The notes beneath the pieces are model-generated. The model was not told where the DNA came from, ran no database searches, and worked only from the letters and a program-made list of their open reading frames with translations. The position numbers and the translations under genes are program-made. Source: a virus (lineage: Duplodnaviria > Caudoviricetes). From it: DNA of 64,000 nucleotides. How positions within the stretch are numbered: the first letter of the stretch is position 1; each line of letters begins with the position of its first letter. The DNA is taken from positions 1 to 64,000 of the IMG/VR virus record IMGVR_UViG_3300032218_002273. One strand, written 5' to 3'. Positions 1,568 to 55,895 of this stretch are shown one piece after another.

Positions 1568-2551
1568 ATGGCTTCTAATAAGTCGGCACTCACTACAGAT
1601 AAAATCATTGCGTCAATTAAAAGACGTACTATGATGCCTGAATCTTCTATTACATTTTCAAAAGATGATTTAATTGAATTTTTAAATGAAGAAATGAGTA
1701 TAGGGGTAATTCCTTCTATTCTTCAAATGAAAGATGAATATCTTGTCTATAGAGATGTAGTAGAAATTGAATCTGGCGTGAGTATTTATCCTATTCCATC
1801 AAGAGCAATTGGTAACAAATTGAGAGAAGTGGCTTATTCTGATGATTCTATAAATGAGTATAATATGACTCAAATAGAATTAGATAATAAAATTAGTAAC
1901 AACTTTCTATCTCAAGGTGGATTTTACGCATCTCAATTTTACATTCAAGGTTCTGACATACATCTACACCCAAGCAATTCTAACTATTCCGGTTACTTAT
2001 TTATTTATTATTATATGAGACCTAATTTTTTAGTACAAGATAATAAAGTGGGAGTAATTACATCAATAGATAGAACAGCAGGAGTCATTACATTAGATAA
2101 CATACCTTCTAACTACGCGGCTGTTAGTAGCGGTATTACTACAATAAAAGCTAAAGAGTTTGATTTTGTAAGCTCAGATTCTCCAAATAAAATTATTGCG
2201 TGGGATATACCGGGAACTATAAATTCAGAATCTCACACAATAACACTAGAAAATCCTTCTGTAATACCCTCTAATTTGAAAGAGGGAGATTATATGCCAG
2301 TTGCCGGAGAAACCTGTATACCAAACATACCCACAGAATTGCATCCGGTACTAGCTCAAAGAGTTGCTTTGAGAGTACTAGAAGCTCTGGGAGATTCTAC
2401 TGGGTTAGCTAATGCTAGAGTTAAACTAGAAGAGATGGAATCTAAAACAGGTGTTTTAATTGATTCTAGAGTCGAAGGATCTCCTGTAAAAATTAAAAAT
2501 AGACAAATGCAGTATACCCTTAGAGGTAGATTTATGAGAGGAACTTTTTAA
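1568..2551 (+). CDS. Head-tail adaptor / tail tubular protein A-like
   Basis: 327 aa, immediately before the large nozzle-like gene. N-terminal IIASIKRR...LIEFLNEE and C-terminal PTELHPVLAQRVA helices resemble podophage adaptors. Mainly a synteny call. Confidence 0.5.
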   Translation: MASNKSALTTDKIIASIKRRTMMPESSITFSKDDLIEFLNEEMSIGVIPSILQMKDEYLVYRDVVEIESGVSIYPIPSRAIGNKLREVAYSDDSINEYNMTQIELDNKISNNFLSQGGFYASQFYIQGSDIHLHPSNSNYSGYLFIYYYMRPNFLVQDNKVGVITSIDRTAGVITLDNIPSNYAAVSSGITTIKAKEFDFVSSDSPNKIIAWDIPGTINSESHTITLENPSVIPSNLKEGDYMPVAGETCIPNIPTELHPVLAQRVALRVLEALGDSTGLANARVKLEEMESKTGVLIDSRVEGSPVKIKNRQMQYTLRGRFMRGTF

Positions 2552-5500
2552 ATGGCTACTAATTTAACCCTTAATCCAAGAGGGTTATACACTAATTATA
2601 ATTCGCTTTCTCAAGTTGAAAGCGGCAGCTTACTTAAAGCTGATAATGTTATATTAGATCAAAAAGGAACTATAAAAAAACGAAGAGGAATCAAATATTA
2701 CGGAGAGTTATTTTCAGAAGAATTTGGTAGCCTTAGCGTAAGAGCTAGGCAATTATTAGAATATAAAGGTAGGATTATACGCCATGTACTTGATAAGTTA
2801 TCGTTCGATGATGGTACAGGACAGTTTACTAGTTTTACTGGCAGTTATTCTGATAATTCTATTGGTGCTAGAATTAGGGGAATAGAGTATAAAGGGAATT
2901 ATTATTTTACGTCTGATGATGGTGTAAAAAAAATATCAGTAAAAAAAACAACTGATCTTAATTCAAATAGCATTTTAGATTCTGGAGTAGCGGCTTCTTA
3001 TGGATTAAAAACACAAGTTATTTTAGATGGTTCTGGTTTTTTAGGATTGGATACATCAACAGGTACTATTAAGTATGTAAAACAACATACTTCATATAGA
3101 GTAACTTGGGGTTATACAGATAATAACAATCTTTTAATAGAAAGTGCTCCTAGTGCCATAGTTTATGCTGAAAATCAATATGCTGATTTATTTTCAGTAG
3201 ATTGTACTATTTATGTACCAAAACATATAAACACTAATTATTTTTTTAGATTATATAGAAGTGAAGTTAGGGCGCAAGATTCAGCTTTATCAACAGAATT
3301 TAATTTAATATTTCAAAGAAAAGTAACGGATGAAGAAATTAATAAAGGATCTTTAATATATACAGATTCTTTATCAGAAGAATCCAGAGCAGCAGGAATT
3401 CCTTTATATGTAAATCCATACTCAGGAGACGGAGAAGTATCTTCAAATTTTAGCCCTCCTTTTGCATCAGATATCACTTTATATCAAAACCACATATTTT
3501 ATGCTAATACAAGAAATAAACATACTAAAATTATATCTTTGCAAGATTTATCTGAGTTAAACGGTTCTCAGTTACAGTTAATTAAACCTGATGAAAGTAT
3601 AAGAACTTTTGTATTTCAAGGTAAAAAAGAACAGTCTACAATTGCTATTCAATCTAAATCTTTTTATAACTCTCCTCAATTTGGAGATTATTTTTTATTA
3701 AATAGTGCTAGAAATGAAAGAAGATATTTTGCGCATATTTTAACAGAAGATGTTAAAGTATCTACTACAGCAAATAGTAATATCATAGCAGTTAATACAT
3801 TTACGTTTACAGGAAATACAACTATATCTTCAGATCTTATAAAATCAATCTCTGGTATCACAACTGGATTTAATTTATATAAAGGTATGTTTATATCCGG
3901 TACAGGAATTGCTAATGATTTAGTATATATTAAAGACATATATCAGGACGAATCAAGTAATCTAACTGTACAACTAAGCGCCCCTATAACCGGACTAGGT
4001 GCGACAGGAGTACAATTTACAACTAGTTATAGCTCTAGATTTACTCCGGGATTTTCCCTAGAAAGTACTTCTACAACAACTATTACTGACAGCAAAGGTA
4101 TTACAACTACAACAAAAGTTATCCCGGAAGATACAATTATAGTATCTATAAATACAAAATATATAACCCTAAATACCATATGTCCTTCTACTGCATCTAA
4201 TATATCTGTAATTACATCTCCTAATACAGCATATACTAATGGAAGAATACCAATTATTATTGATTTAAGACCTCACACATTTACAGGAACTTTTTCTAGT
4301 CCTAAAATTACTGGGATATCCGGTACAGTTATTCAAGATTTAGTTATAGGACAAACCGTAACTCAAGCCTCTCCATCTACTTTTTCAGCTAAAATTGAAA
4401 GTATTTCACAAACAACGGGAGTTTCTACTTACGAAATTACATTAAACTCCATAACAGGTACAGCATCAGGAACTTCATTTATATCAGAATCGGTAACTGA
4501 TCAAGCAGTCGCTGGAGAATTTTCAAATTCAATAGCAGAATTAGATGATTTTTTAGGAAACTCAGGTATACCTATACAAGGTAACTTATCTCTTACAAGT
4601 GATCCGGTTGAAAGTAAAAAAATTACTCAAGTAAATAGTATTTTTGCACAAAATTTAATTCCAGGTCAAATAATAACAGGAGCAGGAATACCTTCTTCTT
4701 CATATATTGAGGCTATATCGGTTGATTTGATAAATAGCACTTCAACTACAACTTATTACACAATAACTCTAAATCAATCCGTATCCTACAGCTTACAACA
4801 GGCGAATTTATTGGTAACTTCTTTTCCATTAACAGCCACTACTACCAACACAAGCTACATATTAGATAATATATCCCATCAGTTTATAAATTCAATACCA
4901 TTAAATAAAATTATATCAGGAACAGGAATACAAGCCAACACCACTATTAAAGCAATTGCTGTAAATGAGGCGGTAGGAAGTAATATTTCAGCAGTCATAA
5001 CAAAAGATAGCTATGTTATTACAAATATACCAGCATCAAATTTTATAGATACTGAATTTTTAAAAGTTGGAAAATATATAAAATCAATAAGTTTTCCGGA
5101 TAATTGCATAATTACAGAAGTAAATAGCGCAGCACGTACTATTACTATAAATCAAAAAGCTACAACTTCTGGAACAACTTTTGTTAGATCTCATAATACA
5201 ATAACCTTAAGTAAACCTACAACAGCAACAGGAAGTAAAATAGCTTTAAGTATTGGGGATAATTCAACTTATCCTATAGTTATTAATTGTAGATTTGTAA
5301 CAATTCAAAATGAGTCTAATGGATATTCTGATTCTGTTTCTGATGGAGCTTCTCCTAATAGTACAGGATTAACTTTTGTGACTGTGCAGGAAGGTTTAGG
5401 GGAAAATAAAAATTCCTCAACTGGACTATTCACTAATATTTTAGTCGAGGATAGCGGTCATTATAATAAACAAGATAGTATTGATATTACAGCTAGAAGT

Positions 5501-44021: not shown

Positions 44022-44284
44022 CAAGTTGTTGAAATTATTGGACAACAAAATCTGTTGAGTGTTGAAAGTTTGGACGATTTCCGAGAAAACCCAATGATTT
44101 CGCAACTGTTAGGTTTTTTGACAGGTGACAAAAGTTTGGACAGTCCAAGTGATTGAAATTGTGGAGTTTATCGGGATTACAGCTAGATAAAGCTAAGTGG
44201 TTGATAATACAGAGAGTGTTAATAAAATTACAGAGTTAACTATAAGGTCTAGTGATATCAAGTAGTTAGTGTAAGTGCTGGATA
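44022..44284. promoter_or_regulatory. Cluster of IHF-consensus sites
   Basis: WATCAANNNNTTR exact at 44194-44206 (-) and 44256-44268 (+); one mismatch at 44022-44034, 44146-44158 and 44272-44284 (all -). Confidence 0.55.
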
Positions 44285-44321
44285 ATCATTAGGTTTATTG
44301 TAAAATCAAATAGATATATTT

Positions 44322-44473
44322 TGGCATGAATTGTGCAAGCAAGTAATGGCATGAAGCTTGCATTAACAATTATCGTGCCATTATATTTGGCATGGAGTGT
44401 GCATTAGCAAATGTCGTGCCAACTTTTTTTTGGCATTGTTCTTGCATATAATAAACTTGGCATGGAACTTGCA
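44322..44473. promoter_or_regulatory. Array of seven sigma54 -24/-12 motifs
   Basis: TGGCA(C/T)N-N4-(T/G)TG(C/T)W at 44322, 44347, 44388, 44431 and 44458 (+) and 44365-44380, 44406-44421 (-). Confidence 0.7.
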
Positions 44474-44483
44474 AGAGCCAGAG

Positions 44484-45069
44484 GGGGGGGGTAGGCGAGC
44501 TTGAGCGGTCGATTGCGATGTCTATGCATGTGTAAATACTGAGTGGAGTATGTTTGTGTAAGCATCTGCTTACCTTGGTTACTATCTGGGAGGATAGATC
44601 GAGGTAGCATGCAGGGTTATTGCATAGCCTATGTCAGTATGTTTGTAGGTACTAGCTCGATCTGAATAGGGCTTCCTACAAGATAGTAACGGAAAACATA
44701 CGGGAAGTGCGTCAAGATAGGTTGCCATATGGTGTGTGCAGGCTATGCGTTTGTGTATACTGTAGATTACGTTTGGGTACGGGGGTATCCTAGTCTCATA
44801 GGTTAGACTTCTAGTTCCCCCACTTAATTACTTTGAAATTGGCTAAGTAGGCTGTGCCGTTAGGCTGAATAGGATTCTTTCAAGAGGGCTTTACGCTGTA
44901 GTCTTCTGGCCTTCGTTTCTACAGGAGTCGTTTATGTCAACATTCCGGAAATCCCAGATAGTTGATGTACCCCGACTGTCTCTCGCATCCTTGCAATTTT
45001 CACGTTCCCTAGTGAGTAGTCCGAAGTTGTCAGGTAGGGTGTTATCCTACTATGGACGGTCTTCCTTAA
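44484..45069 (-). ncRNA. Candidate long structured non-coding RNA (element A)
   Basis: No credible ORF and visibly GC-richer than the genes. Several exact 8-10 bp complementary pairs; contains a 48-nt motif shared with 55715-55762; late motif at 45070-45079 points into it. Strand is not certain. Confidence 0.5.
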
Positions 45070-45079
45070 TAGTTGTTAA
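45070..45079 (-). promoter_or_regulatory. Late motif TTAACAACTA on the minus strand
   Basis: The only minus-strand intergenic copy I found; it faces the non-coding region. Confidence 0.6.
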
Positions 45080-45186
45080 TTACCTATAAAAGAGGTCACA
45101 TAGCCAGTTGTCACCAAAATGCTACAAAAAGGTGACGAGATATGGTAAGAATGCCGATAACTTTAGAGTTTCCCGTTGTCGTTTTT

Positions 45187-45196
45187 TTAACAACTA
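45187..45196 (+). promoter_or_regulatory. Putative late promoter motif TTAACAACTA
   Basis: 16 nt upstream of ATG 45213, with GAGGGG in between. Confidence 0.7.
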
Positions 45197-45212
45197 ATTA
45201 CGAGGGGTAGTT

Positions 45213-45509
45213 ATGTCAGAAAAAAAAGATAAGCCATTTATAGGATTTAATAAAAAGAAGCACTCTCCAACGGGCGGTTTAAACGCTAAGTATAGAGAAA
45301 AGTATAACCGTGAGCATGGTAGCCATTTGCAAGAGCCAGTTACCGAATCTAACCCCTCGGAAGAACGTGCAGCCAGAAGAAGATCCTTCTGTGCTAGGAT
45401 GAATGGTGTACCGGGGCCAACTTCTAAAGATGGCAAGCTTACACCAAAAGGTGCTGCGTTAAAAAGATGGCGTTGCCTTAAAAAGAAGATATTTGGTGGT
45501 GATGACTAG
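45213..45509 (+). CDS. Small basic phage protein (DUF6321-like)
   Basis: GGLNAKYR...RRRSFCARM.G..GP...DGKLT.KG.ALKRWRC, a recurring phage motif. Confidence 0.65.
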   Translation: MSEKKDKPFIGFNKKKHSPTGGLNAKYREKYNREHGSHLQEPVTESNPSEERAARRRSFCARMNGVPGPTSKDGKLTPKGAALKRWRCLKKKIFGGDD

Positions 45510-45851
45510 TTATACCATATCATCGTAGAATTTAGATAAATACTTGAATGCTTGAGTCATTAATTTACCGTTAATATAGAATATATATCCATCTGTAGCA
45601 GTTTGATCAGTATCCCAGCTATTGGCAGGTTGTGCAAAATACGAGTGCCTAGCTTCTCTTAATTCTCCTGCAGGGCCTCCAATAGTCCAAAAGCAACTAT
45701 AACCGTCACTAGAATACTCCATTATACCAAACTCATACCAAAATCCATCATTAGATAATTCGGCTATAATACCCCCATCTAACTCAGTTATTTTGCAATC
45801 TAGTTCTTTTAGCTGTTCTAGGGTGTAGTTTTTAGTTTTAAATTGTTTCAT
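45510..45851 (-). CDS. Hypothetical protein (likely start MKQFKTK)
   Basis: Coupled to a 51-aa upstream ORF via ATGA. Confidence 0.55.
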   Translation of the reverse strand: MKQFKTKNYTLEQLKELDCKITELDGGIIAELSNDGFWYEFGIMEYSSDGYSCFWTIGGPAGELREARHSYFAQPANSWDTDQTATDGYIFYINGKLMTQAFKYLSKFYDDMV

Positions 45852-46099
45852 AGTGTACCAATATACTTCCAAGTATGATGCCCGTCAAGTCCAATAGTCA
45901 TAAGTAGCATTTCTTCTGCCATAGATTCTATAATAAATAGTTGATCTAAATAAGCATTATAGAATATAACCTGCACTGATTTATTCATCTCTACTCTCCA
46001 CATACTCAATCTCCTAAGATTAACACAAATGCTAATTTAAGTAGATTGAATATTATATTTTAATATTGGCACTCACTTTGCAGTTCTGAGTGCCATTTG

Positions 46100-46267
46100 T
46101 TAGTTTACAGGAGAAATTTCCTTTAATACCTGTAGTTTAGCCTCAATCTCTCGAATATCCATAGCTGCATCTGCCACACCATGCCAATCTTCTTGCTCCA
46201 GCTTTAAACGCAAATAGTCAATCATACCTTCTTTTTGAAATAATAAATTTTGTTTATCATTTTTCAT
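46100..46267 (-). CDS. Small hypothetical protein (55 aa, not in track)
   Basis: MKNDKQNLLFQKEGMIDYLRLKLEQEDWHGVADAAMDIRE...; AAGGA RBS. Confidence 0.6.
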   Translation of the reverse strand: MKNDKQNLLFQKEGMIDYLRLKLEQEDWHGVADAAMDIREIEAKLQVLKEISPVN

Positions 46268-46279
46268 TCTTTTTTTCCT

Positions 46280-46500
46280 TGTTTTAGGATTTAAAGGCTG
46301 TTAATCTCATCGAGAACCATTTAACAGACAATCACTATTTATCTGCACCTACCAATCATCTAGAATTAGCCCAGACCTTCATCATAGCTTTCGCCATCGG
46401 ATTACAGCACTCATAGGCTTAATTGGCTCCAAGTAAGCTCCAGCGAGCAAGACTCACAACTTGGCACGGCTTGAACCATCAAACTCGTTGCATGTGACGC
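46280..46500 (-). ncRNA. Candidate structured leader or small RNA (element C)
   Basis: About 230 nt with no ORF between a sigma70 promoter and ATG 46267; ATGGC-GAAA-GCTAT and CTGTTAA/TTAACAG hairpins. Confidence 0.35.
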
Positions 46501-46507
46501 TAAAGAT

Positions 46508-46536
46508 AATGTATCATATTTATTTAAGTTTATCAA
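46508..46536 (-). promoter_or_regulatory. sigma70-type promoter
   Basis: TTGATA-N17-TACATT. Confidence 0.5.
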
Positions 46537-46537
46537 T

Positions 46538-47002
46538 CTAGGTTTCATCTTCTTCATTAAAAACTTTCTTTATTTGTGATTCATAAAATCCACAACCTTT
46601 TAAAAAGTATTTAAACTCGTCAACGATTTCATTAAGAGTATCTACTTCAAGAGAATATTCAACATTAGAAACATCATATCTATTCTCTGGGTCTTTATGT
46701 TTTATAAATTTAATAATCATTTTAAATGCCTCCAAACCTAATTAAAAACACCTGCTTGAGACATTCTTTTAAAAACCTGCTCTTTCCAATTTTGCGTCAT
46801 TTTTCATATCCTCATACGTTTTCCCAAGATATTCCGCTACCTTATCAGTAAAATGATAATCATTAAAGTAGCCCAAATCTGAAATAATTCCTTCATAATA
46901 CACTGCGTTTATGACTTGTTCTGCAGAATTTAGTCTTTTTTGTAAGTTCTCGATTTCTGTATGTAACTCCATAATTCTAGTTAAAGGGTTGTAATAGCTC
47001 AT
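46538..47002 (-). other. Two hypothetical genes (46538-46735, 46769-47002)
   Basis: The first resembles 49065-49268 (EF(K/R)YFL(K/L)GCGF). Confidence 0.55.
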
Positions 47003-47058
47003 AATATCTCCTAATATCTTATAATAATCCTTACTAATTATATACCATTTTTATTAAA

Positions 47059-47068
47059 TTAACAACTA
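47059..47068 (+). promoter_or_regulatory. Putative late promoter motif TTAACAACTA
   Basis: Only 5 nt before ATG 47074, with no SD. Confidence 0.65.
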
Positions 47069-47073
47069 TTTGT

Positions 47074-47580
47074 ATGAAAACAAAATCATTTACTGAATTA
47101 AAAAAATTTTTAGGAAAAGGTGGTTCTTCTGATGCTACGGAGTTAATGAATACTCCTGTTGATGAAGTATCTCAAAATAAAAATGATAAAAAGCTTGAAG
47201 ATTTAATGAAAAATAAACCTTCTGAAGCTGAAGTTGAACAAGCTATAGCAAAAAATGCAAAGTCTTTACCTAAAACTCCTCATATAGATGAATTAGCGGC
47301 TCAAAGAGCACAAAATAAATTTAATGAAATGATGAAAAATCAAAATTTATCAAATGTAGGTTTAGATGAAGCAGGGGCAGCAAATCCTAAAGCATTAGCA
47401 GGAGCTGTAGTTCCTGGAGCATTGGGTATGTTAGCTGCGCATTTAATTGGAAAAACTCCAGATTTGCAATTAGATCTTAAAGATGCAGGTGCTGGTTCTG
47501 ATGTGGTTCCTAAAGATGCAGGGCATTTTAATGAAGATCCAAAATTTAAAAAATTAAAAGATATTTTAGAGAATAGATAA
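47074..47580 (+). CDS. Hypothetical late protein
   Basis: 168 aa on the + strand inside a minus-strand block; has its own late motif. Confidence 0.65.
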   Translation: MKTKSFTELKKFLGKGGSSDATELMNTPVDEVSQNKNDKKLEDLMKNKPSEAEVEQAIAKNAKSLPKTPHIDELAAQRAQNKFNEMMKNQNLSNVGLDEAGAANPKALAGAVVPGALGMLAAHLIGKTPDLQLDLKDAGAGSDVVPKDAGHFNEDPKFKKLKDILENR

Positions 47581-48378
47581 ATATTTTTTGCAACCCTTGG
47601 ACTTATTTCCATGTACTCTGCAAACTAATTCCTTATCTTTTCCACAAGAATAAATTAAAATTAATGCATCGCTTTCTTCTATTCTATCCACAAGCTTACA
47701 TTCTGACCCTGACTTTAAATTTCCACATCCAAAAATAAAACTAGTCCATAGTATTAGTGCTAATTTCATCATCTTCCTCGCTTTCTTTATCCCAAATTAA
47801 ACCTAATACTTCAAAATAATGATCTAAAGCCATATTTTCACTTAATTCATCTAAATTATTTCTAGCTTCTTTTGCTTTTAAAACACCTTTTTTTAAATCA
47901 ACACATATTAAACACATATTCTAGTCCTCATCTTGTTCTCCATATAAGCCAGTTCCAAAGTAATCTTTCATTCTAGAAGATTTTGAATTTCTTTCTTTTT
48001 CTAATTTTTCCCAATCTTCTTTTTTTATTCCACATTTAGTGCAATCCCAAACAATACTGACTATTAACACCGTTTTTTTCCAGCGATGATAACAATTTAA
48101 AGCTTTTCTTTTTTGTTCTTCTGTCAGCATTTTTCACAATTTGATTTATTAAATCTATGATTATGTTGATTTCTACAGTATTTACTGCAGTAAACTACGG
48201 ATTTACCGCTTTTAGTTTCATAGATAAAAGTTTCTTCTCCTAAACAATGATTTACAGCCTGTATTCTGTTTTGTAAACTTATATTTTTTTGTTTTATTGT
48301 TGTTATAATACTACTGCATTTAGCGCAAGTAATTCTAGCTCTTAATGGTTGACCACTAATTTTACCATCTAGTACCAT
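47566..48378 (-). other. Small lipoprotein (47566-47772) and small Cys-rich genes (47921-48130, 48124-48378)
   Basis: FIFGC lipobox; CxxC motifs. Confidence 0.55.
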
Positions 48379-48406
48379 TTATCCTCCAACTAGCAGATAG
48401 TAATAG

Positions 48407-48435
48407 ATTATAGCATTGGCAAAAAATAAAATCAA
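48407..48435 (-). promoter_or_regulatory. sigma70-type promoter
   Basis: TTGATT-N17-TATAAT with an extended TG. Confidence 0.7.
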
Positions 48436-48444
48436 GCTATACCA

Positions 48445-49065
48445 TTATAGATCTTCAAAAACTACAGGTATGTTTGCTTTAAATTCATTTAATAAATTGC
48501 TTGCTAATGTTCTAATTTCTAATTGAGCATGTTTGTCTGTTCTTAATTTAAAAAAATGTCTCCAGGATCTTAAATTCATTGTAACAATAACTTCTGTTTT
48601 GGTGTCGTTTGGTAATACTCCTCTTGCTTGTTGAGGTTTAAGCCCTAAAGAAATTAAACTCATATAAGATCTTTCACTATCTTCTAACGCTATTTTATAT
48701 TTAAATTGCTGTTCTATTGTCATAGAGTCAAAATCTAAAGGTTTAATAAAAGTAATTTGATTTCCAAACTTACCTCTGCTGTAATTTACGTATCGCTGAG
48801 ATTCCTGAGAATAAGATGCAATACGGTGCCTAACGAGCTGATGAGAACAAGCACGGCTGCAAGTGAAACGAACAGTAACACTAAAATGCTCCACAACAGA
48901 TTCATGCTCAGATTCAAGAATTTTTTTAACAAATGTATTACAACTTCCATCTTTTATTGTATCTTCACTTTTATAGCAAACTTTGCCGCACTGTTCAATA
49001 TGTTTTATAATTTCTTCGCCACTTATTGGAGTTATGATTTCTACACTAGGGTCTACTAAAATCAC
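48445..49065 (-). CDS. thyX: Flavin-dependent thymidylate synthase
   Basis: HESVVEH, SRACSHQLVRHRIASYSQESQRY, ARGVLP, NLRSWRHFFKLR. Confidence 0.95.
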   Translation of the reverse strand: MILVDPSVEIITPISGEEIIKHIEQCGKVCYKSEDTIKDGSCNTFVKKILESEHESVVEHFSVTVRFTCSRACSHQLVRHRIASYSQESQRYVNYSRGKFGNQITFIKPLDFDSMTIEQQFKYKIALEDSERSYMSLISLGLKPQQARGVLPNDTKTEVIVTMNLRSWRHFFKLRTDKHAQLEIRTLASNLLNEFKANIPVVFEDL

Positions 49066-49795
49066 TACTCCTCCTCTTCATGAACTTCAATTTCATTAGC
49101 AATTTCTTCAAATGATTGTTTAATAGATCCTGGCTGAAATCCACAGCCTAATAAAAAATATCTAAATTCACTAACAATATCAGTGGTAGTTAGTGCATCA
49201 ACTGACATTGAAAGCTCTGTTATGTCAAATTTATTTTCTCTATCTGATGTTTTTATAAATGTAAACATTATTCAACCTCCATTGTGGATTGACCATCAAT
49301 TAATTCTTGAACTTCTTTAAAACCAACAACTTCATCTCCAATTTCATTTACCGCCTTAACTACCGAAGTGTCATTAGTTTCTTTTATCTCCCAAAATAAT
49401 TTTTCATTATCTATAAAACTTAAAGCTGGTCTTAGTGTTATTAGTTGCTCATTTGGTACAAATATAACGTAACCGTGAGATTCAGAAAAAGCAATCCCTT
49501 TTTTATCCACTTCTAGTTTATATAAAAGTCTATTGGATTCATTAAAATAAAATACATCGCTTAGGGAAATTACTTTCTCAGTTTCTTCCTTTTCTGAGAG
49601 TGTTTGTATTTCTTTTTTAGGAGTTTCTTTTATGAGTATTTCTTGATTATTTATTTTAGACAAGTTTCTCTGTAAGTCTCTAATGCTTTCTCTTAACTCA
49701 TTTTGAGAAATTTCCCCTTCCGCAAATTTAATTGCTTTTTTCCTTACAAGATTTATATCTTCAATTATATCTAACACATGCATTAACAACTCCAT
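49065..49795 (-). other. Two hypothetical genes (49065-49268, 49268-49795)
   Basis: Coupled ORFs upstream of thyX. Confidence 0.55.
49783..49792 (+). promoter_or_regulatory. Late motif variant TTAACAACTC
   Basis: 17 nt before ATG 49810, with AGGAG in between; abuts the start codon of the divergent gene. Confidence 0.6.
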
Positions 49796-49809
49796 ATAGG
49801 AGAAATATT

Positions 49810-50154
49810 ATGTATAATTTTAACACAGAAGTACACCCTGATCAAGTAGTTTGTAGATGTTGCGGTCAAAAAAGAGTAAAGACTTATGGTTCTATTACAA
49901 GCGATAAAAGGGTTGTTTGGGTTAACGAATTTGGTGAAAGATGGTATGGTAAAAAGTGTCCTAATTGTTATAAAACCTATAAAGAAGCTTATGATCAAAA
50001 AAGAAGATTAAAACTAGGGCATAGACCTTTTGGTAGTTTTGATAACTGTTCAGAGTGTGGAAATAAATTTTTAGTAAAAATGGGAGCTACTAAAAAATGC
50101 CCAAGTTGTAAATCTAAGAATATTAAAACTCAATTAAAATTAACAGAGGGCTAA
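49810..50154 (+). CDS. Multi-Zn-ribbon protein (true start MYNFNTEV)
   Basis: Four Cys pairs (CRCC, CPNC, CSEC, CPSC); AGGAG RBS. Confidence 0.7.
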   Translation: MYNFNTEVHPDQVVCRCCGQKRVKTYGSITSDKRVVWVNEFGERWYGKKCPNCYKTYKEAYDQKRRLKLGHRPFGSFDNCSECGNKFLVKMGATKKCPSCKSKNIKTQLKLTEG

Positions 50155-52511
50155 TCGCCCTCTCCCATAAAACTCATCATATTAAAAACAATATTTTTCG
50201 ATAATTCTGATAAAAATACTTGATCTTCTGCGCTAAGATATTCATTTGGTACATAAACAGGAGATCCGTCCTCTTCTCTCCTGTACATCAAAAGCCACTG
50301 TTTTCCTACCATTTTATTTAAATACATTTTTAAATTTCTAAAATGCATTAATTGTACTGCTGGGCTATCTTGCTCATCTTTGTCAGATTCCAGCTCGCTT
50401 AATACTTCATCTACGGTATCATTTAATTCTTCTTGAGTCATTTCTGGGTTTTCTTTTAAAACTTCTTCTATTAAAGAATCAACTTCTTTTGATGTTAAAA
50501 CTTTAAATTTATTCTTTTTGTCATCTGTCACCTTTGATCTCCCTGATTGTTTCACCTATAAACTCTGCAGTATTCCACGTTATTTCTAAAAATACTTCCT
50601 GTGGTAACGTCCTAGCATAGGTAGTGTTTACTATATATCCAGATTTTCTTAGTTTATTTTTAATCTTAATTTCATCGTTTTTATTGATGAAAATTTCTAT
50701 TCTTTCAAACCCAAGCGTAGAAGCTACTCTAATCATCTCGCTAATTGTGATTAAATTTTTAATAGGGCTTCTTTTTTGATGCATTATCATATTATGATAT
50801 GCTTTATTTGCTGCAATCATCCAATAATCCTCAGTGTTGGGTGAAAACAAATGTCACAAGTTTCACTTATATCTTCTGAAATAAAAGAATGTCCGCAATC
50901 TTTATTGGTACATCTTTGTTTTTTTAAAAATCCTGTTTCATCACAGAATTGATTTTTTGAAAATTTTAAGCTTATAGATTCTAAATCTTCTTTTGAGTAC
51001 TTGGAGGATAAATGTGCTAATCTTTGTAACCAATCAGAATCTTTAACAACCCCAGCTTGTACTAACTCTGATAATTGCATGTACTCTAAAATTTCTAAAG
51101 GATCTTTCACAACAACCTCAAATTTTGCCTTTTTGCAAATTGAAAACTTAAGCTAAAGGCTATAAGTTTTATCATTATTGAAGTATATTTTGCATTTGAT
51201 AAAAAATCTAGCCCAACTCCGCAACTATCTACATAATAGCATACTCTGCCACTTTTGAAAAACAACATTTTTACAAAAAAAACACTGACTTCTGTATCCC
51301 CATTTAAATGCTCGATTATATCAAATAACTTCCAATGAAAAATAATATCAAATCTTACTTTAGTTTGTTTTGTTTTCATCTTCTAGTGTTTTTTCTACAG
51401 CAAGCACTAATGCTTCGTGTAAAATTTGTTTGATAAAAATTTCTTGTTGTTCTTCTGTACTATTTTCTCCTAAATTTTCTAATGCTAAATTAATTAAAGC
51501 ATCTGCCATTTCTTCGTCTAAATCTATTTGAATTTCACCATTATCTAATGCAACTACTTTTGCTTCCATAAAATCCTTAAAAAGACAAGGAGAGTGGAGG
51601 TATCTCTCCTTGCCAAATAGTTATCTATAAATATTATAGATGACTAGGGGTTATTTAATTTATTTGCTATATCCTCTTTACTTAAATTTTTAGTAGCTTC
51701 TTTTAAATCATCTTGAGAAAAACCATGATAATTCATATGATTAATAAATTTACTATACTCTTCTTCTAATTGTTTTTGCAGCCTAACTTCATCTATTGCG
51801 GATAATAAGCTGGATACAATAAATACAACTAGAGCGCCTATTAAAATTTTAAAAAGCAAAGGATCTCCCAAGTTTTTTAAAGCAATAAAAGCTCCAGCAA
51901 AAGCTAGTAATTGAATTGTTATCTGAGATAATATCTTAATTGTTTTATTTATTTTAAAGGACAGTTTTCTTTGAACTAAATCCTCACCAATTTTAAATTT
52001 TTTTGCAGAATTTAAAACTTCATCAATTGATTTCATAACTTCTCCTAAAAAGAAAACGGAACATTTGGAACTTCTATCCAGTGTTTTATATTATTTCTTT
52101 TTAATAAAACTTTTTCTAATCCTAAAGGGGTTCCTTGTTTAGTAATATAAGCCACTTCTGCTTCTATATTGTCTTCATCTTGTTTAACTAACTTTACAAC
52201 ATAAATGTAAATGCTAGAGTTAGTTGTAGTATAAAATCTATTTTGGTGTATATCACTCATATATAAAATTTACCATTTTATAACATTAAAGTCAACTACT
52301 TACCTACCAGCATACGACACATTGTTAGCTGGTAGTGTAAGTTATCGTTTTTTATTTGTAAATTACTTATTTGTTCTTCTTTTGATCTTAAATCCCTATC
52401 TTCTAAAAAAGATCCAACGCAAGATATTACAATTAAGGTCAAAGAAAAATTTACTACTATAAAAAATAGTAATGTTGCTATTTTATTATGCCCCTGTCCA
52501 CTCACAAGCAC
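50151..52511 (-). other. Run of eight small hypothetical genes
   Basis: 50151-50555, 50521-50850, 50817-51110, 51107-51379, 51360-51569, 51644-52036 (2 TM), 52045-52260, 52296-52511 (TM). Confidence 0.5.
52267..52295 (-). promoter_or_regulatory. sigma70-type promoter
   Basis: TTGACT-N17-TAAATT. Confidence 0.55.
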
Positions 52512-54339
52512 CCCCGCTACACGCTAATTGATCCATTCGTTTAGTATTATCTTGAAATTCAATAACTTCATTTAGGTTAACATTTTTAATTTGCTTTGAC
52601 AACTCTTCAAAAGTTTCTTTTGTACATGACTCAAACGGTGCTTGTTTATAAGAACCTCCATCAAAAGGTAATAAACTTATCCCTGTATAGGAGTCTCTAT
52701 GTTCCCACATATTATCTCTTAAAGAATCAACCTCTTCTGCCTTATAGTTAATAGTACAAGACACGTTATGCTTATTTGCTCCACTTCTATGTCCAGAAGC
52801 CACCCAGTTTTGATTAAATTTTAGTACTCTCTGCAATAAAGAATCTGCACTTTCCATATTTCTAGTAATTGAATTTTTTGGAGACTCTTGAGGTATACTT
52901 ACCACTACTCCAGTTGGAGAAAATAAATCATCTTCTACTAGACTTGGCACTGTCTCTATAAGATAATTAGTAAGAACATCTCCCTTATTCATTCTGACTC
53001 TTCTGATATAAAAATCATCATATCTTGCATGAATACCACTAGCACTACCAACTACACAACTCATAGTTCCTTCTGGTTTTAGACAGGTAGTTCTAGCAGC
53101 TAGATTTATTCCAATCTTTTTAGCATACTTCTCATTAACATCTAAAACAAGTTTTGCTGAATTTTGTAATTGTTCGTTTGTTAGTACATTATTATCAGCA
53201 ACTCCAGTGAATGATACTCCCAAAAGAGCTTCTTTTTCTGTTTGTACCTTCCAATTTTCTTTAATGTAAGGAAAATCAGTATACGCTGCTTGTAAAGTGC
53301 CTAACAATGACGCAGCATACACTCTATTATGCAGATCCTTTTCATTTTTAACGCCTGTAAGATTTACAGAAGTTAAATTACAAAATTGATTAGAATTAAG
53401 ACTAATTTCACAGCACGGATTAACTCCCAATTCCAAGTCATTTGTCCAAACAAAGCCAGGTTCTCCACTATTACTAGCAATACAAGCATCAAATACCGCA
53501 TTAAACTCCTCTCTAGTGGTAGTAAGTCTGTGAAGAACAGCGCTATTGTTAGCTCTAGCTCTGTGAGGATGTTTTTCCCACCAATGTCCATGTTTAGCAG
53601 TTAACATATCATTGTCATCCTTATCAAAAATAGAAATTAGAGCTGCTCTTCTTATACCTCCTGAGAGTACACAGTCTGCTATAATACATAACATATCGTG
53701 AACTTCTATAGTTTTTAATTTTCTACCAATTGCTAATTTTAATTTACTTTCAACTAATTCTAACATTCTTTTTAAAGGTTCATGTCCAGGAGCAGTAGCT
53801 CCGCTAGATAATCTAGAGCCTTTTGGTCTAATTAGTGAAAAATCAAATAAAGGTCTTAAGCCTCCATTAAAATAAGATCTCATTAAGCTATTTAATGACT
53901 CTGCCCACCCCTCAATAGAGTCTGATACAATATATTTATTTTCTTCTTTTGGCTTTCTTACCGTTGGAAGATTATTTGTGTGGTGTTTTTGAACAGAGAA
54001 ACCAAAACCTGTACCGCACATTAATAAATACAATGCTTCACTAAAAATTTCTGGATAATTTGCTGCAGCAAAGCTACAATTAAATAATTTAATATTGTTT
54101 TTTAAAATACTTTCTCCGCCAAACTGCATAGATCTCATTGACGGCATAACATTTAAATCATGAACTTGTTTATAAGCTTTAATAATATCTCTAGATAAAT
54201 GAGGAAATCTTTCTAGATGCATCATCATATTTCTATTGATGATTTCTTCTAAAGATTCCCTTCTTCCTAAGTGATCTAAGAACTTAGCATAAGTTCTGTA
54301 AACTACAATATCAGAAAGAAATTTATTTGACTTATTCAA
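52486..54339 (-). CDS. nrdJ: Class II (B12-dependent, monomeric RTPR-type) ribonucleotide reductase
   Basis: MPSMRSMQFGG, FNCSF, GGIRRAA, NPCCEI, TCLKPEGT and C-terminal ACSGGACE; no small-subunit gene nearby. Confidence 0.92.
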   Translation of the reverse strand: MNKSNKFLSDIVVYRTYAKFLDHLGRRESLEEIINRNMMMHLERFPHLSRDIIKAYKQVHDLNVMPSMRSMQFGGESILKNNIKLFNCSFAAANYPEIFSEALYLLMCGTGFGFSVQKHHTNNLPTVRKPKEENKYIVSDSIEGWAESLNSLMRSYFNGGLRPLFDFSLIRPKGSRLSSGATAPGHEPLKRMLELVESKLKLAIGRKLKTIEVHDMLCIIADCVLSGGIRRAALISIFDKDDNDMLTAKHGHWWEKHPHRARANNSAVLHRLTTTREEFNAVFDACIASNSGEPGFVWTNDLELGVNPCCEISLNSNQFCNLTSVNLTGVKNEKDLHNRVYAASLLGTLQAAYTDFPYIKENWKVQTEKEALLGVSFTGVADNNVLTNEQLQNSAKLVLDVNEKYAKKIGINLAARTTCLKPEGTMSCVVGSASGIHARYDDFYIRRVRMNKGDVLTNYLIETVPSLVEDDLFSPTGVVVSIPQESPKNSITRNMESADSLLQRVLKFNQNWVASGHRSGANKHNVSCTINYKAEEVDSLRDNMWEHRDSYTGISLLPFDGGSYKQAPFESCTKETFEELSKQIKNVNLNEVIEFQDNTKRMDQLACSGGACEWTGA

Positions 54340-54373
54340 TTGTCCACCTCCAAAGTTATAATATGATTATGCC

Positions 54374-54931
54374 TTAATCTTGAGGAGGATGCAACTTATT
54401 TTTACCCATTTCTTTCATTTCTTGTTTGATCTTTTCACTTAGTTTTATTATTTCACTAAACTGTATTTTTAATTGTTTTTCTTCTAGCAATTTTTTAAAA
54501 AGTCCAGAATCTAAACTTTTCCAAGGAAGCCCTGCAATATAATCTGTATCTTTTCTATTCATATGTTACCTAAACTGCATGTTTTTAAGTTTTTTTTCAC
54601 GTTCTCTATCAATAGAATCTTCAATTTCTAATTTAATTCTTTCATAAATATCTTTAACCTCGTTTGTTCTTTCAAAATGTTCTGGAGTTTCAGCAGTTTC
54701 TAAAAGCATATCGCAGGTTCTTTCTCCTACATCCGCTAAGTGCCAGAGAACTTGTGTATCTTCTAGATTAAGTTTTCTGTAATGAGATTGATTTACTAAT
54801 TTAGTCATTCTTTCATAAGATTCTTTTAGTTCATCATCTTTTGCTGCCTCTGCCACTTCAATTGCGTTTGCGATTACTTCTTTTAGCAACTCTTTCATGT
54901 CCTCGTTTAAATTTAATTGCATCACTTCCAC
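54374..54931 (-). other. Two hypothetical genes (54374-54562, 54566-54931)
   Basis: Short ORFs upstream of nrdJ. Confidence 0.5.
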
Positions 54932-55145
54932 CTTTGTTTTTTAAATCTTTTAGAAACTTATTAGGATCTAATTTTTTATTTCTTAGAGAAACATCTCCAA
55001 TGTATGGTAATTCCACAGTTCTTTGAACTAATTCTTCTGCTAATTCATATAAAAAGCATTTACATATTGTGTCAATAAATTCTCTAGATAATCCTGTGTC
55101 GTCACAAGTTCTAGTTACTATATCTTGATAATGCTTATTACTCAT
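54858..55145 (-). CDS. HU/IHF-like DNA-binding protein (likely start MSNKHY)
   Basis: IVTRTCDDTGLSREFIDTICKCFLYELAEEL...VELPYIGDVSL follows the HU alpha1-alpha2-beta1 pattern. Confidence 0.45.
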   Translation of the reverse strand: MSNKHYQDIVTRTCDDTGLSREFIDTICKCFLYELAEELVQRTVELPYIGDVSLRNKKLDPNKFLKDLKNKGGSDAIKFKRGHERVAKRSNRKRN

Positions 55146-55546
55146 GGTATAAAAAATCTCCTTCCAGAAGCTGGCGGAACTATTTGTACATGAACCCATC
55201 CTGGAGTGTGTTTAAAATCTTCCATCCATAATCCAATAGCTGTTATTTCGTCTATATGGTCATATATAAAATCTTTTAAATGATTATCAGGATCAGAAAA
55301 ATCACAAGCTTGTCCACTTAAATGTTTTGACTTCATTGGAATTTTTGACATATCTCTAATCCCTTTATCAGCATAAATTCTTATGTGATCTTCTAGAGAT
55401 CTGTATCCACTAGTCACTATCATAGGCTTTGCAAAAATATCTCTAAGTTTATTTACTTTCAAAAGTAACTCAAAAACATTTTGCTGATGTTCTTCTGGAA
55501 CATCGTTTATATCTTTTCCTTTTAAAATTTCAGACATTGAAATCAT
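55142..55546 (-). CDS. Peptidase M15-family endolysin candidate
   Basis: IVTSGYRS, SKHLSGQACD and WVHVQ Zn-site motifs. Confidence 0.85.
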   Translation of the reverse strand: MISMSEILKGKDINDVPEEHQQNVFELLLKVNKLRDIFAKPMIVTSGYRSLEDHIRIYADKGIRDMSKIPMKSKHLSGQACDFSDPDNHLKDFIYDHIDEITAIGLWMEDFKHTPGWVHVQIVPPASGRRFFIP

Positions 55547-55570
55547 ATAACCTCCAATAAGGTTTATTGT

Positions 55571-55599
55571 AGTATATTTTATTTTGTATTTATTGTCAA
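55571..55599 (-). promoter_or_regulatory. sigma70 promoter (leftward)
   Basis: TTGACA-N17-TATACT. Confidence 0.8.
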
Positions 55600-55606
55600 A
55601 TTTTTA

Positions 55607-55635
55607 TTGACAGGTTTGAATTATTTTCTTAATAT
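55607..55635 (+). promoter_or_regulatory. sigma70 promoter (rightward) facing non-coding element B
   Basis: TTGACA-N17-TAATAT; no credible ORF for at least 280 nt downstream. Confidence 0.7.
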
Positions 55636-55640
55636 CGAAA

Positions 55641-55885
55641 ATGGGCAAAAAGCCTAGCTTATACTGTGCTAGATCGTAAAAAAGGGAAACCGAGATACTA
55701 CCGGGGCATAATCAATAAACGGTAACTGTCAAAACGAAGGCCAGAAGATGACAGCGAAACGCTACTCAGTATATTCTTATTTAGCGATAACATCGCCAAG
55801 AGGTTAGACGAAAGTTAAAAGTAGTAACTCTAATCGCTCTAAAGGTACTATATATAATAGATACTAGGCGGAGCCGTGCAAGGAA
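55641..55885 (+). ncRNA. Candidate structured non-coding RNA (element B)
   Basis: Follows a sigma70 promoter. Hairpins CTAGC/GCTAG, CTGTCA/TGACAG, GCGAT/ATCGC and a GAAA-capped stem; 38/48 identity to element A. Confidence 0.55.
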
Positions 55886-55895
55886 TTAACAACTA
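55886..55895 (+). promoter_or_regulatory. Putative late promoter motif TTAACAACTA
   Basis: Upstream of the packaging operon. Confidence 0.65.

Follow-up and report, generated by a model that had tools for sequence, protein, structure and literature searches.

A predicted multi-helix RNA of Bdellovibrionota chromosomes present in two diverged copies in a tailed phage

Large ornate RNAs of about 580-800 nt, ROOL and GOLLD, occur in bacteria and phages. Phages are also known to carry copies of host RNAs, such as tRNAs, tmRNA-like genes and pseudo-ToxI mimics of antitoxin RNAs, and the put RNA of phage HK022 works solely in cis, on the very polymerase by which it was transcribed, so that terminated stand-alone copies are not expected. 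To our knowledge, little is known of RNA biology in Bdellovibrionota or of their phages. One stand-alone small RNA of this phylum, merRNA of Bdellovibrio bacteriovorus, carries a cyclic di-GMP riboswitch fold (PMC3627812). Here we describe two copies, RNA A and RNA B, of a candidate structured RNA in a tailed phage (Duplodnaviria; Caudoviricetes) represented by the IMG/VR record IMGVR_UViG_3300032218_002273. The window, that is, the whole stretch of DNA analysed, comprises 64,000 nt (positions 1 to 64,000 of the record); the whole phage genome is 81,763 bp long, and the record has direct terminal repeats.

An earlier examination of the window from its letters alone (below, the sequence-only reading) had reported a duplicated 48-nt hairpin at 44935-44888 (minus strand, copy A) and 55715-55762 (plus strand, copy B) and had proposed a new family of phage non-coding RNA. 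Both copies are present at these coordinates, and that the element is a structured RNA is borne out by compensatory changes between A and B and by covariation in homologues. Our comparative analysis indicates that each hairpin is the core of a larger multi-helix RNA of roughly 160-240 nt, with a predicted fold consisting of a closing helix P1, a four-way junction (P1, P1a, P2, P3), a pseudoknot, and a 3' domain (P4-P6). Taken alone, the family and its fold are proposed here with high confidence. Two covariance models were used, R1 built from A and B alone and R2 built from 16 sequences. RNA A covers the stretch from 45010 down to 44885 at the least, and probably as far as about 44774; RNA B occupies about 55669-55831 (163 nt). 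Their predicted elements are as follows.

44885-45010, minus strand: 5' domain of RNA A (covariance-model matches, R1 124 bits, R2 90 bits)
45003-45010 with 44885-44895, minus strand: P1 of RNA A (by homology to the covarying bacterial P1; letters read from the sequence)
Between P1 and P2, minus strand: short P1a/linker of RNA A
44973-44977 with 44926-44930, minus strand: P2 of RNA A (pairs counted), enclosing an inserted hairpin at 44937-44965
44919-44924 with 44896-44901, minus strand: P3 of RNA A, one spacer base from P2, with a 17-nt loop at 44902-44918
44969-44971 with 44908-44910, minus strand: pseudoknot of RNA A, joining the letters just 3' of the P2 5' strand to the loop G-C-C (family-wide covariation; complementary, one G-U included)
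44774-44884, minus strand: putative 3' domain of RNA A, a AAAGUAAUUAAGU motif like that of the family, then a G5/C5 hairpin (comparison of A, sister-phage and bacterial copies)
55669-55765, plus strand: 5' domain of RNA B (covariance-model matches, R1 88 bits, R2 75 bits), a minimal form without P1a and without the P2 insert
55670-55676 with 55755-55764, plus strand: P1 of RNA B (pairs read from the sequence)
55699-55703 with 55720-55724, plus strand: P2 of RNA B (read from the sequence; covariation)
55726-55731 with 55749-55754, plus strand: P3 of RNA B, loop 55732-55748 (read from the sequence; covariation)
55705-55707 with 55740-55742, plus strand: pseudoknot of RNA B (complementary; covariation)
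55766-55831, plus strand: 3' domain of RNA B, without the P6 hairpin (by-eye comparison with bacterial copies)
55784-55796, plus strand: hairpin of the RNA B 3' domain (by eye)
55799-55806 with 55825-55831, plus strand: P5 of RNA B (by eye), enclosing a GAAAGU...AAGUAG internal-loop motif at 55807-55824

Comparison of the two intergenic regions by blastn returned the same ungapped alignment as had been given by the sequence-only reading, with 38 of 48 positions matching (E=3e-8). The 17-nt loop is identical in A and B, and searches of the window and of the whole genome found it exactly twice, at 44902-44918 (minus strand) and 55732-55748 (plus strand). Realignment of 98 nt of A with 72 nt of B again showed the upstream block (CGAGA..CGGGG) as well as the additional hairpin of A, and the two compensatory pairs claimed for the loop-bearing stem, here P3, proved correct. 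A second helix, P2, had been overlooked: those letters of the upstream block that vary are complementary to the varying letters just 5' of P3, and this adds three further compensatory pairs to the two in P3. Together, P2 and P3 form 11 of 11 pairs in A and in B, five of them differing on both sides. Both copies are intergenic; no credible open reading frame (ORF) was found in either region. A small-peptide reading of the 48-mer was rejected: A and B are open in one frame, yet by inspection their differences lie off the third codon positions.

Covariation in P2, P3 and the three-pair pseudoknot was counted over 47 model-aligned sequences, with 500 shuffles and slid controls for comparison. In total 95.7% of the cells are paired and 127 are changed on both sides; none of the 500 shuffles reached the observed values of pairing or double change, and the slid controls dropped to 23-48% paired. 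Further covariation in homologues, which had been set beforehand as a check, is abundant. A, B and a copy found in a sister phage (see below) score 55-90 bits with R2, have P2 and P3 one base apart, and carry the conserved 17-nt purine-rich P3 loop. The pseudoknot partners are G-C-C in this loop and a G-rich tract directly 3' of the P2 5' strand, with the variants GCC:GGC, ACC:GGU, CCC:GGG, and GUC:GAC, the last of which belongs to the sister phage. Two column pairs of the pseudoknot read GC37/AU2/GU2 and CG37/UA4/UG3/GC1 in the family alignment, where seven double-change cells and five exceptions were counted family-wide. The sequence-only reading had considered the loop GGCC a possible site of a kissing dimer. 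This tract covaries with the G-rich tract of the same molecule and is GGUC in the sister phage; it is therefore most likely an internal tertiary contact rather than a dimerisation site. The loop had also been suggested as a possible antisense seed, which was not upheld, as no complementary target was found in the window at up to three mismatches.

The long-range helix P1 joins the 5' end to the segment right after P3, and most of its pairs covary (RNAalifold, 25 bacterial copies); as read from the sequences, it is formed by A, B and the sister-phage copy, each with different letters. The variable hairpin P1a comes after a conserved GUGAAAUA-like stretch. In most copies the 3' domain consists of a hairpin followed by P5, which encloses two conserved purine-rich strands and hairpin P6; P5 of the bacterial copies is represented by at least eight distinct complementary letter sets. 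P5 with its GAAAGU..AAGU and AAGUAG motifs is clear in B and partial in A and the sister-phage copy, all by eye. The 3' domain of RNA A is conserved with the sister-phage copy and is more divergent from the bacterial 3' domains.

The third phage copy was found with R1 (E 1e-6) in a sister phage of 81,292 bp with terminal repeats, whose TerL is 54% identical to that of the phage studied here, and is located in an ORF-poor region of about 1.1 kb, of the same kind as that around A. In the sister phage, the site before the terminase operon that corresponds to RNA B is occupied by a 7-bp hairpin (L015 3122-3147) whose stem, CUGUAGC/GCUACAG, resembles P3 of RNA A. This hairpin was rejected as a counterpart of B: its 14-nt pyrimidine-rich loop is unrelated, and it gave no model score. 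Two scans of IMG/VR with a degenerate pattern derived from the three phage copies revealed no other viral contig, and neither intergenic region had a blastn match among 50,697 phage records. The 12 exact matches to the 17-nt loop in IMG/VR are all chance matches within coding sequence, and a metagenome-style match (L023) was discarded because it lies inside an ATPase ORF.

Outside viruses, the degenerate pattern identified about a dozen true homologues in metagenome contigs (R1 E 1e-9 to 1e-3) and four in species-representative genomes titled Oligoflexia, Bdellovibrio, Bacteriovoracia or unclassified proteobacterial bin. R1, built from the two phage copies, also detects copies in metagenome-assembled genomes of Bdellovibrionota. 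R2 was positive in 27 of 151 sampled Bdellovibrionota genomes, with one to four copies each, and in none of 151 genomes from the phylum of a Variovorax genome and none of 151 from the phylum of a Dyadobacter genome. As far as sampled, the class appears to be restricted to the predatory phylum Bdellovibrionota and one lineage of its phages. The best cultured TerL relative of the phage is a phage of Silvanigrella (class Oligoflexia), and hence the host phylum of the phage, which is likely Bdellovibrionota, agrees with the phylum of the RNA.

Comparison of the flanks of the bacterial copies revealed no conserved neighbouring gene; the genes found there, on either strand, include those for a dehydrogenase, an ABC-F protein, a helicase, a hook protein, a histidine kinase, and a porin. 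At the end of several bacterial copies, P5 leads straight into a U-run, or a separate terminator hairpin follows. U-run ends combined with the lack of a conserved neighbour give the layout of a stand-alone small-RNA gene. One of two RNA copies in a Bdellovibrionota genome (L176 ~1595-3100) is interrupted right after P3 and continues into an open frame that by eye resembles an IS66-type transposase, while a metagenome copy (L057) adjoins a tyrosine integrase; the RNA gene may thus be a target for mobile DNA.

No Rfam 15 family, including phi29 pRNA, GOLLD, ROOL, riboswitches and ribozymes, reached or neared its threshold score on this RNA. Nothing was found at the gathering level in the window, and searches at E<=10 around A and B gave nothing beyond noise; a canonical bacterial member had no Rfam matches even at E<=10; and 32 homologous loci yielded only the neighbouring tRNAs. 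The sequence-only reading had named a match to a known Rfam family as a refutation; none was found for the element in the window, the A and B regions, or the homologues. In all five carrier genomes examined, 6S, RNase P, tmRNA and signal recognition particle RNAs scored above cut-off at other loci, so the family is not a divergent form of one of these four housekeeping RNAs. Full-text searches of the literature found no description of the RNA, and its loop motif is absent from the published sequences of attack-phase small RNAs of B. bacteriovorus HD100 (PMC3627812 supplement). By these comparisons the family appears new to Rfam 15 and to the searchable literature. Of the original proposal of a new phage non-coding RNA family, the uncatalogued status is thus retained, whereas the phage-specific nature and the 48-nt size are not: most members are on Bdellovibrionota chromosomes, and the hairpin is part of a larger fold.

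A and B are 76% identical over conserved columns, and phage copies are 71-77% identical to bacterial ones. As the phage copies resemble bacterial copies as closely as A and B resemble one another, an old duplication is indistinguishable from two separate acquisitions; apparently, the phage borrowed the host RNA either twice, or once with later duplication.

The region of RNA A is a 1.06-kb ORF-poor control region. Between RNA A and the next gene, about 750 nt more of ORF-poor sequence (44132-44884) were observed, with a comparable stretch in the sister phage; this part may hold further non-coding elements. Contigs from other samples that belong to related strains show no change in the 5' domain of RNA A, while neighbouring stretches are replaced. 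One of these strains has 45102-45183 and 45511-45850, which flank a DUF6321 ORF (45213-45509), swapped for 33 and 174 unrelated letters, with RNA A unchanged. At the P1a position of RNA A there is a hairpin GCA-AGGA-UGC (44985-44994, minus strand), resembling a CsrA-type binding hairpin with GGA in the loop and present in copy A only. The P1 5' strand of RNA A has a second possible partner, CGUACCC (44774-44780, minus strand), about 110 nt further downstream; minimum-free-energy folding favours this partner, which may form an alternative closing helix.

Candidate signals preceding the two RNAs are the following.

55607-55635, plus strand: sigma-70-like promoter TTGACA-17-TAATAT (consensus match only), about 35 nt upstream of P1 of RNA B
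Back to back with 55607-55635, divergent: promoter TTGACA-17-TATACT (consensus match only)
45070-45079, minus strand: candidate motif TTAACAACTA, about 60 nt upstream of RNA A and, in the sister phage, about 62 nt upstream of the orthologue

The promoter-like sequence before B, first seen in the sequence-only reading, was recovered by a consensus scan, in which the two members of the pair gave 10/12 and 11/12 matches, and the motif reported before A is likewise present. TTAACAACTA recurs at gene boundaries of this phage (45070-45079, minus strand; 45187-45196, plus strand; 55886-55895, plus strand) and is conserved in the sister phage (L015 ~3193-3211, ~5453-5469) and in more distant TerL relatives (L016 ~2487-2525). 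It often stands a few bases before a ribosome-binding site, and its first six letters are one mismatch away from a -35 hexamer. It may be either a phage-specific promoter or a processing signal.

The explanation that we favour, at a probability of roughly 55%, is that A and B are two complete diverged genes of a host-derived, trans-acting structured RNA that mimics, supplements or titrates the partner of the host RNA. In the likely host phylum this RNA is encoded by a stand-alone chromosomal gene, which suggests that the phage copies derive from the host. The RNA would act in trans via its fold: the unpaired, near-invariant purines in the P3 loop would lie on either side of the pseudoknot and combine with the junction strands into a pocket or surface for a putative protein or small ligand. 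During infection the phage would produce versions of its own, transcribing B from a host-type promoter and A from another signal, and these would mimic, supplement or titrate the putative partner of the host RNA. The retention of two diverged full-length copies by a lytic phage speaks for the RNA having an important target during infection. Moreover, the predicted four-way junction and pseudoknot with near-invariant unpaired bases would constitute a complex-folded RNA class present in no catalogue; orphan RNAs with comparable conserved tertiary structure have often proved to be riboswitches, ribozymes or ribonucleoprotein cores, and comparison of a phage copy with a host copy provides a direct experimental handle.

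Several observations weigh against this explanation. First, the family is known here from DNA sequence alone. Second, its folding energy is no better than that of shuffled sequence (z-scores -0.7 to +0.3), so the case rests on covariation and not on stability, and the strand asymmetry is modest (21 G-U versus 10 A-C cells). Third, only 18% of the sampled Bdellovibrionota genomes scored, and the sister phage has a single copy, of the A type, no second one having been found before its terminase operon. Fourth, the 3' domain of RNA A is weakly assigned. Finally, no terminator-like site was found after A or B on their own strands, unlike the bacterial copies; the phage copies could therefore be leaders or parts of longer transcripts, which keeps a role in cis open.

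Such a role is the best of the alternatives, although we regard it as rather unlikely: A and B would be cis-acting 5' leaders, riboswitch-like or processive put-type antiterminators, that control the early genes below 44131 and the terminase operon from 56059 by responding to a ligand or modifying RNA polymerase. Both copies indeed lie downstream of promoter-like motifs and upstream of co-oriented gene blocks, on opposite strands; their P2 and P3 are one base apart, as in put RNAs; and, besides the lack of a terminator after either copy, terminator-like hairpins occur further down the early block. However, the next start codon is about 750 nt downstream of A and about 230 nt downstream of B; in the latter case it belongs to the gene that opens the terminase block, and a further promoter-like motif separates B from it. 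Several bacterial homologues have their own U-run and no conserved downstream gene, and an antiterminator would read through a terminator of its own. Besides, a search of the HK022 early region (20-32 kb) with R2, filters off, gave at best 10.7 bits (E 0.2).

Two further possibilities concern what the RNA itself would do. It is conceivable, at low odds, that it is an aptamer-type sponge or sensor, the purine-rich pseudoknot pocket of which binds a signalling nucleotide or a global regulator protein, the phage soaking up the signal or regulator with two differently timed versions. If so, this would be a second, unrelated RNA of the merRNA kind, by which a host response or defence would be blunted, an RNA-based counter-signalling by the phage. 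Slightly less probable still is a catalytic or ribonucleoprotein-scaffold RNA, either a ribozyme that processes itself or the RNA component of an enzyme, of which the phage needs extra copies. The near-invariant unpaired nucleotides of the family cluster at the junction and the pseudoknot loops, a concentration typical of ribozymes and aptamers, but no Rfam ribozyme family was matched, no conserved partner gene was found nearby, and a minority of the sampled genomes of the phylum carry the RNA.

The view that A and B serve at the DNA level, as an origin, as a site of packaging or recombination, or as attP-like fragments of a gene for a host RNA, instead of being expressed as RNAs, is very improbable. 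A does lie in an ORF-poor control region, and one bacterial copy is near an integrase and another is interrupted by an apparent insertion sequence. But both A and B have their full length, and in each of them every helix, and the pseudoknot too, is maintained by compensatory changes, which a DNA site does not require; G-U cells outnumber A-C cells on the stated strand, where several bacterial copies also have U-run terminators; and neither an integrase nor a resolvase was found when looked for in the phage, which argues against attP-type fragments.

Compared with known systems, the putL/putR sites of HK022 resemble A and B in being two diverged copies on opposite strands, each after a promoter, with two adjacent hairpins and compensatory differences. 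They differ from them in the absence of similarity at the model level; in the present RNA there are two additional helices, as well as a pseudoknot and a 3' domain, and several of its bacterial copies are terminated and stand-alone, without a conserved downstream gene. There is also a general likeness to phage-borne host RNAs, in that the phage carries a homologue of an RNA encoded by the host and plausibly uses it to supplement or mimic that RNA. With merRNA the family shares the phylum and the layout of a stand-alone, aptamer-like structured small RNA with no downstream gene to regulate, merRNA being a precedent for a ligand sponge; the difference is that merRNA holds a known Rfam fold, while the present RNA matches none. 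Finally, GOLLD and ROOL are precedents for an orphan, intricately folded non-coding RNA common to bacterial chromosomes and phages and sometimes found near tRNA genes, tRNAs lying within about 0.4-1.4 kb of family members at three loci (L043, L177 and L186). Neither of their Rfam models scores on the present RNA, which is much smaller (about 160-300 nt), belongs to a different phylum, and has a defined predicted four-way junction with a pseudoknot.

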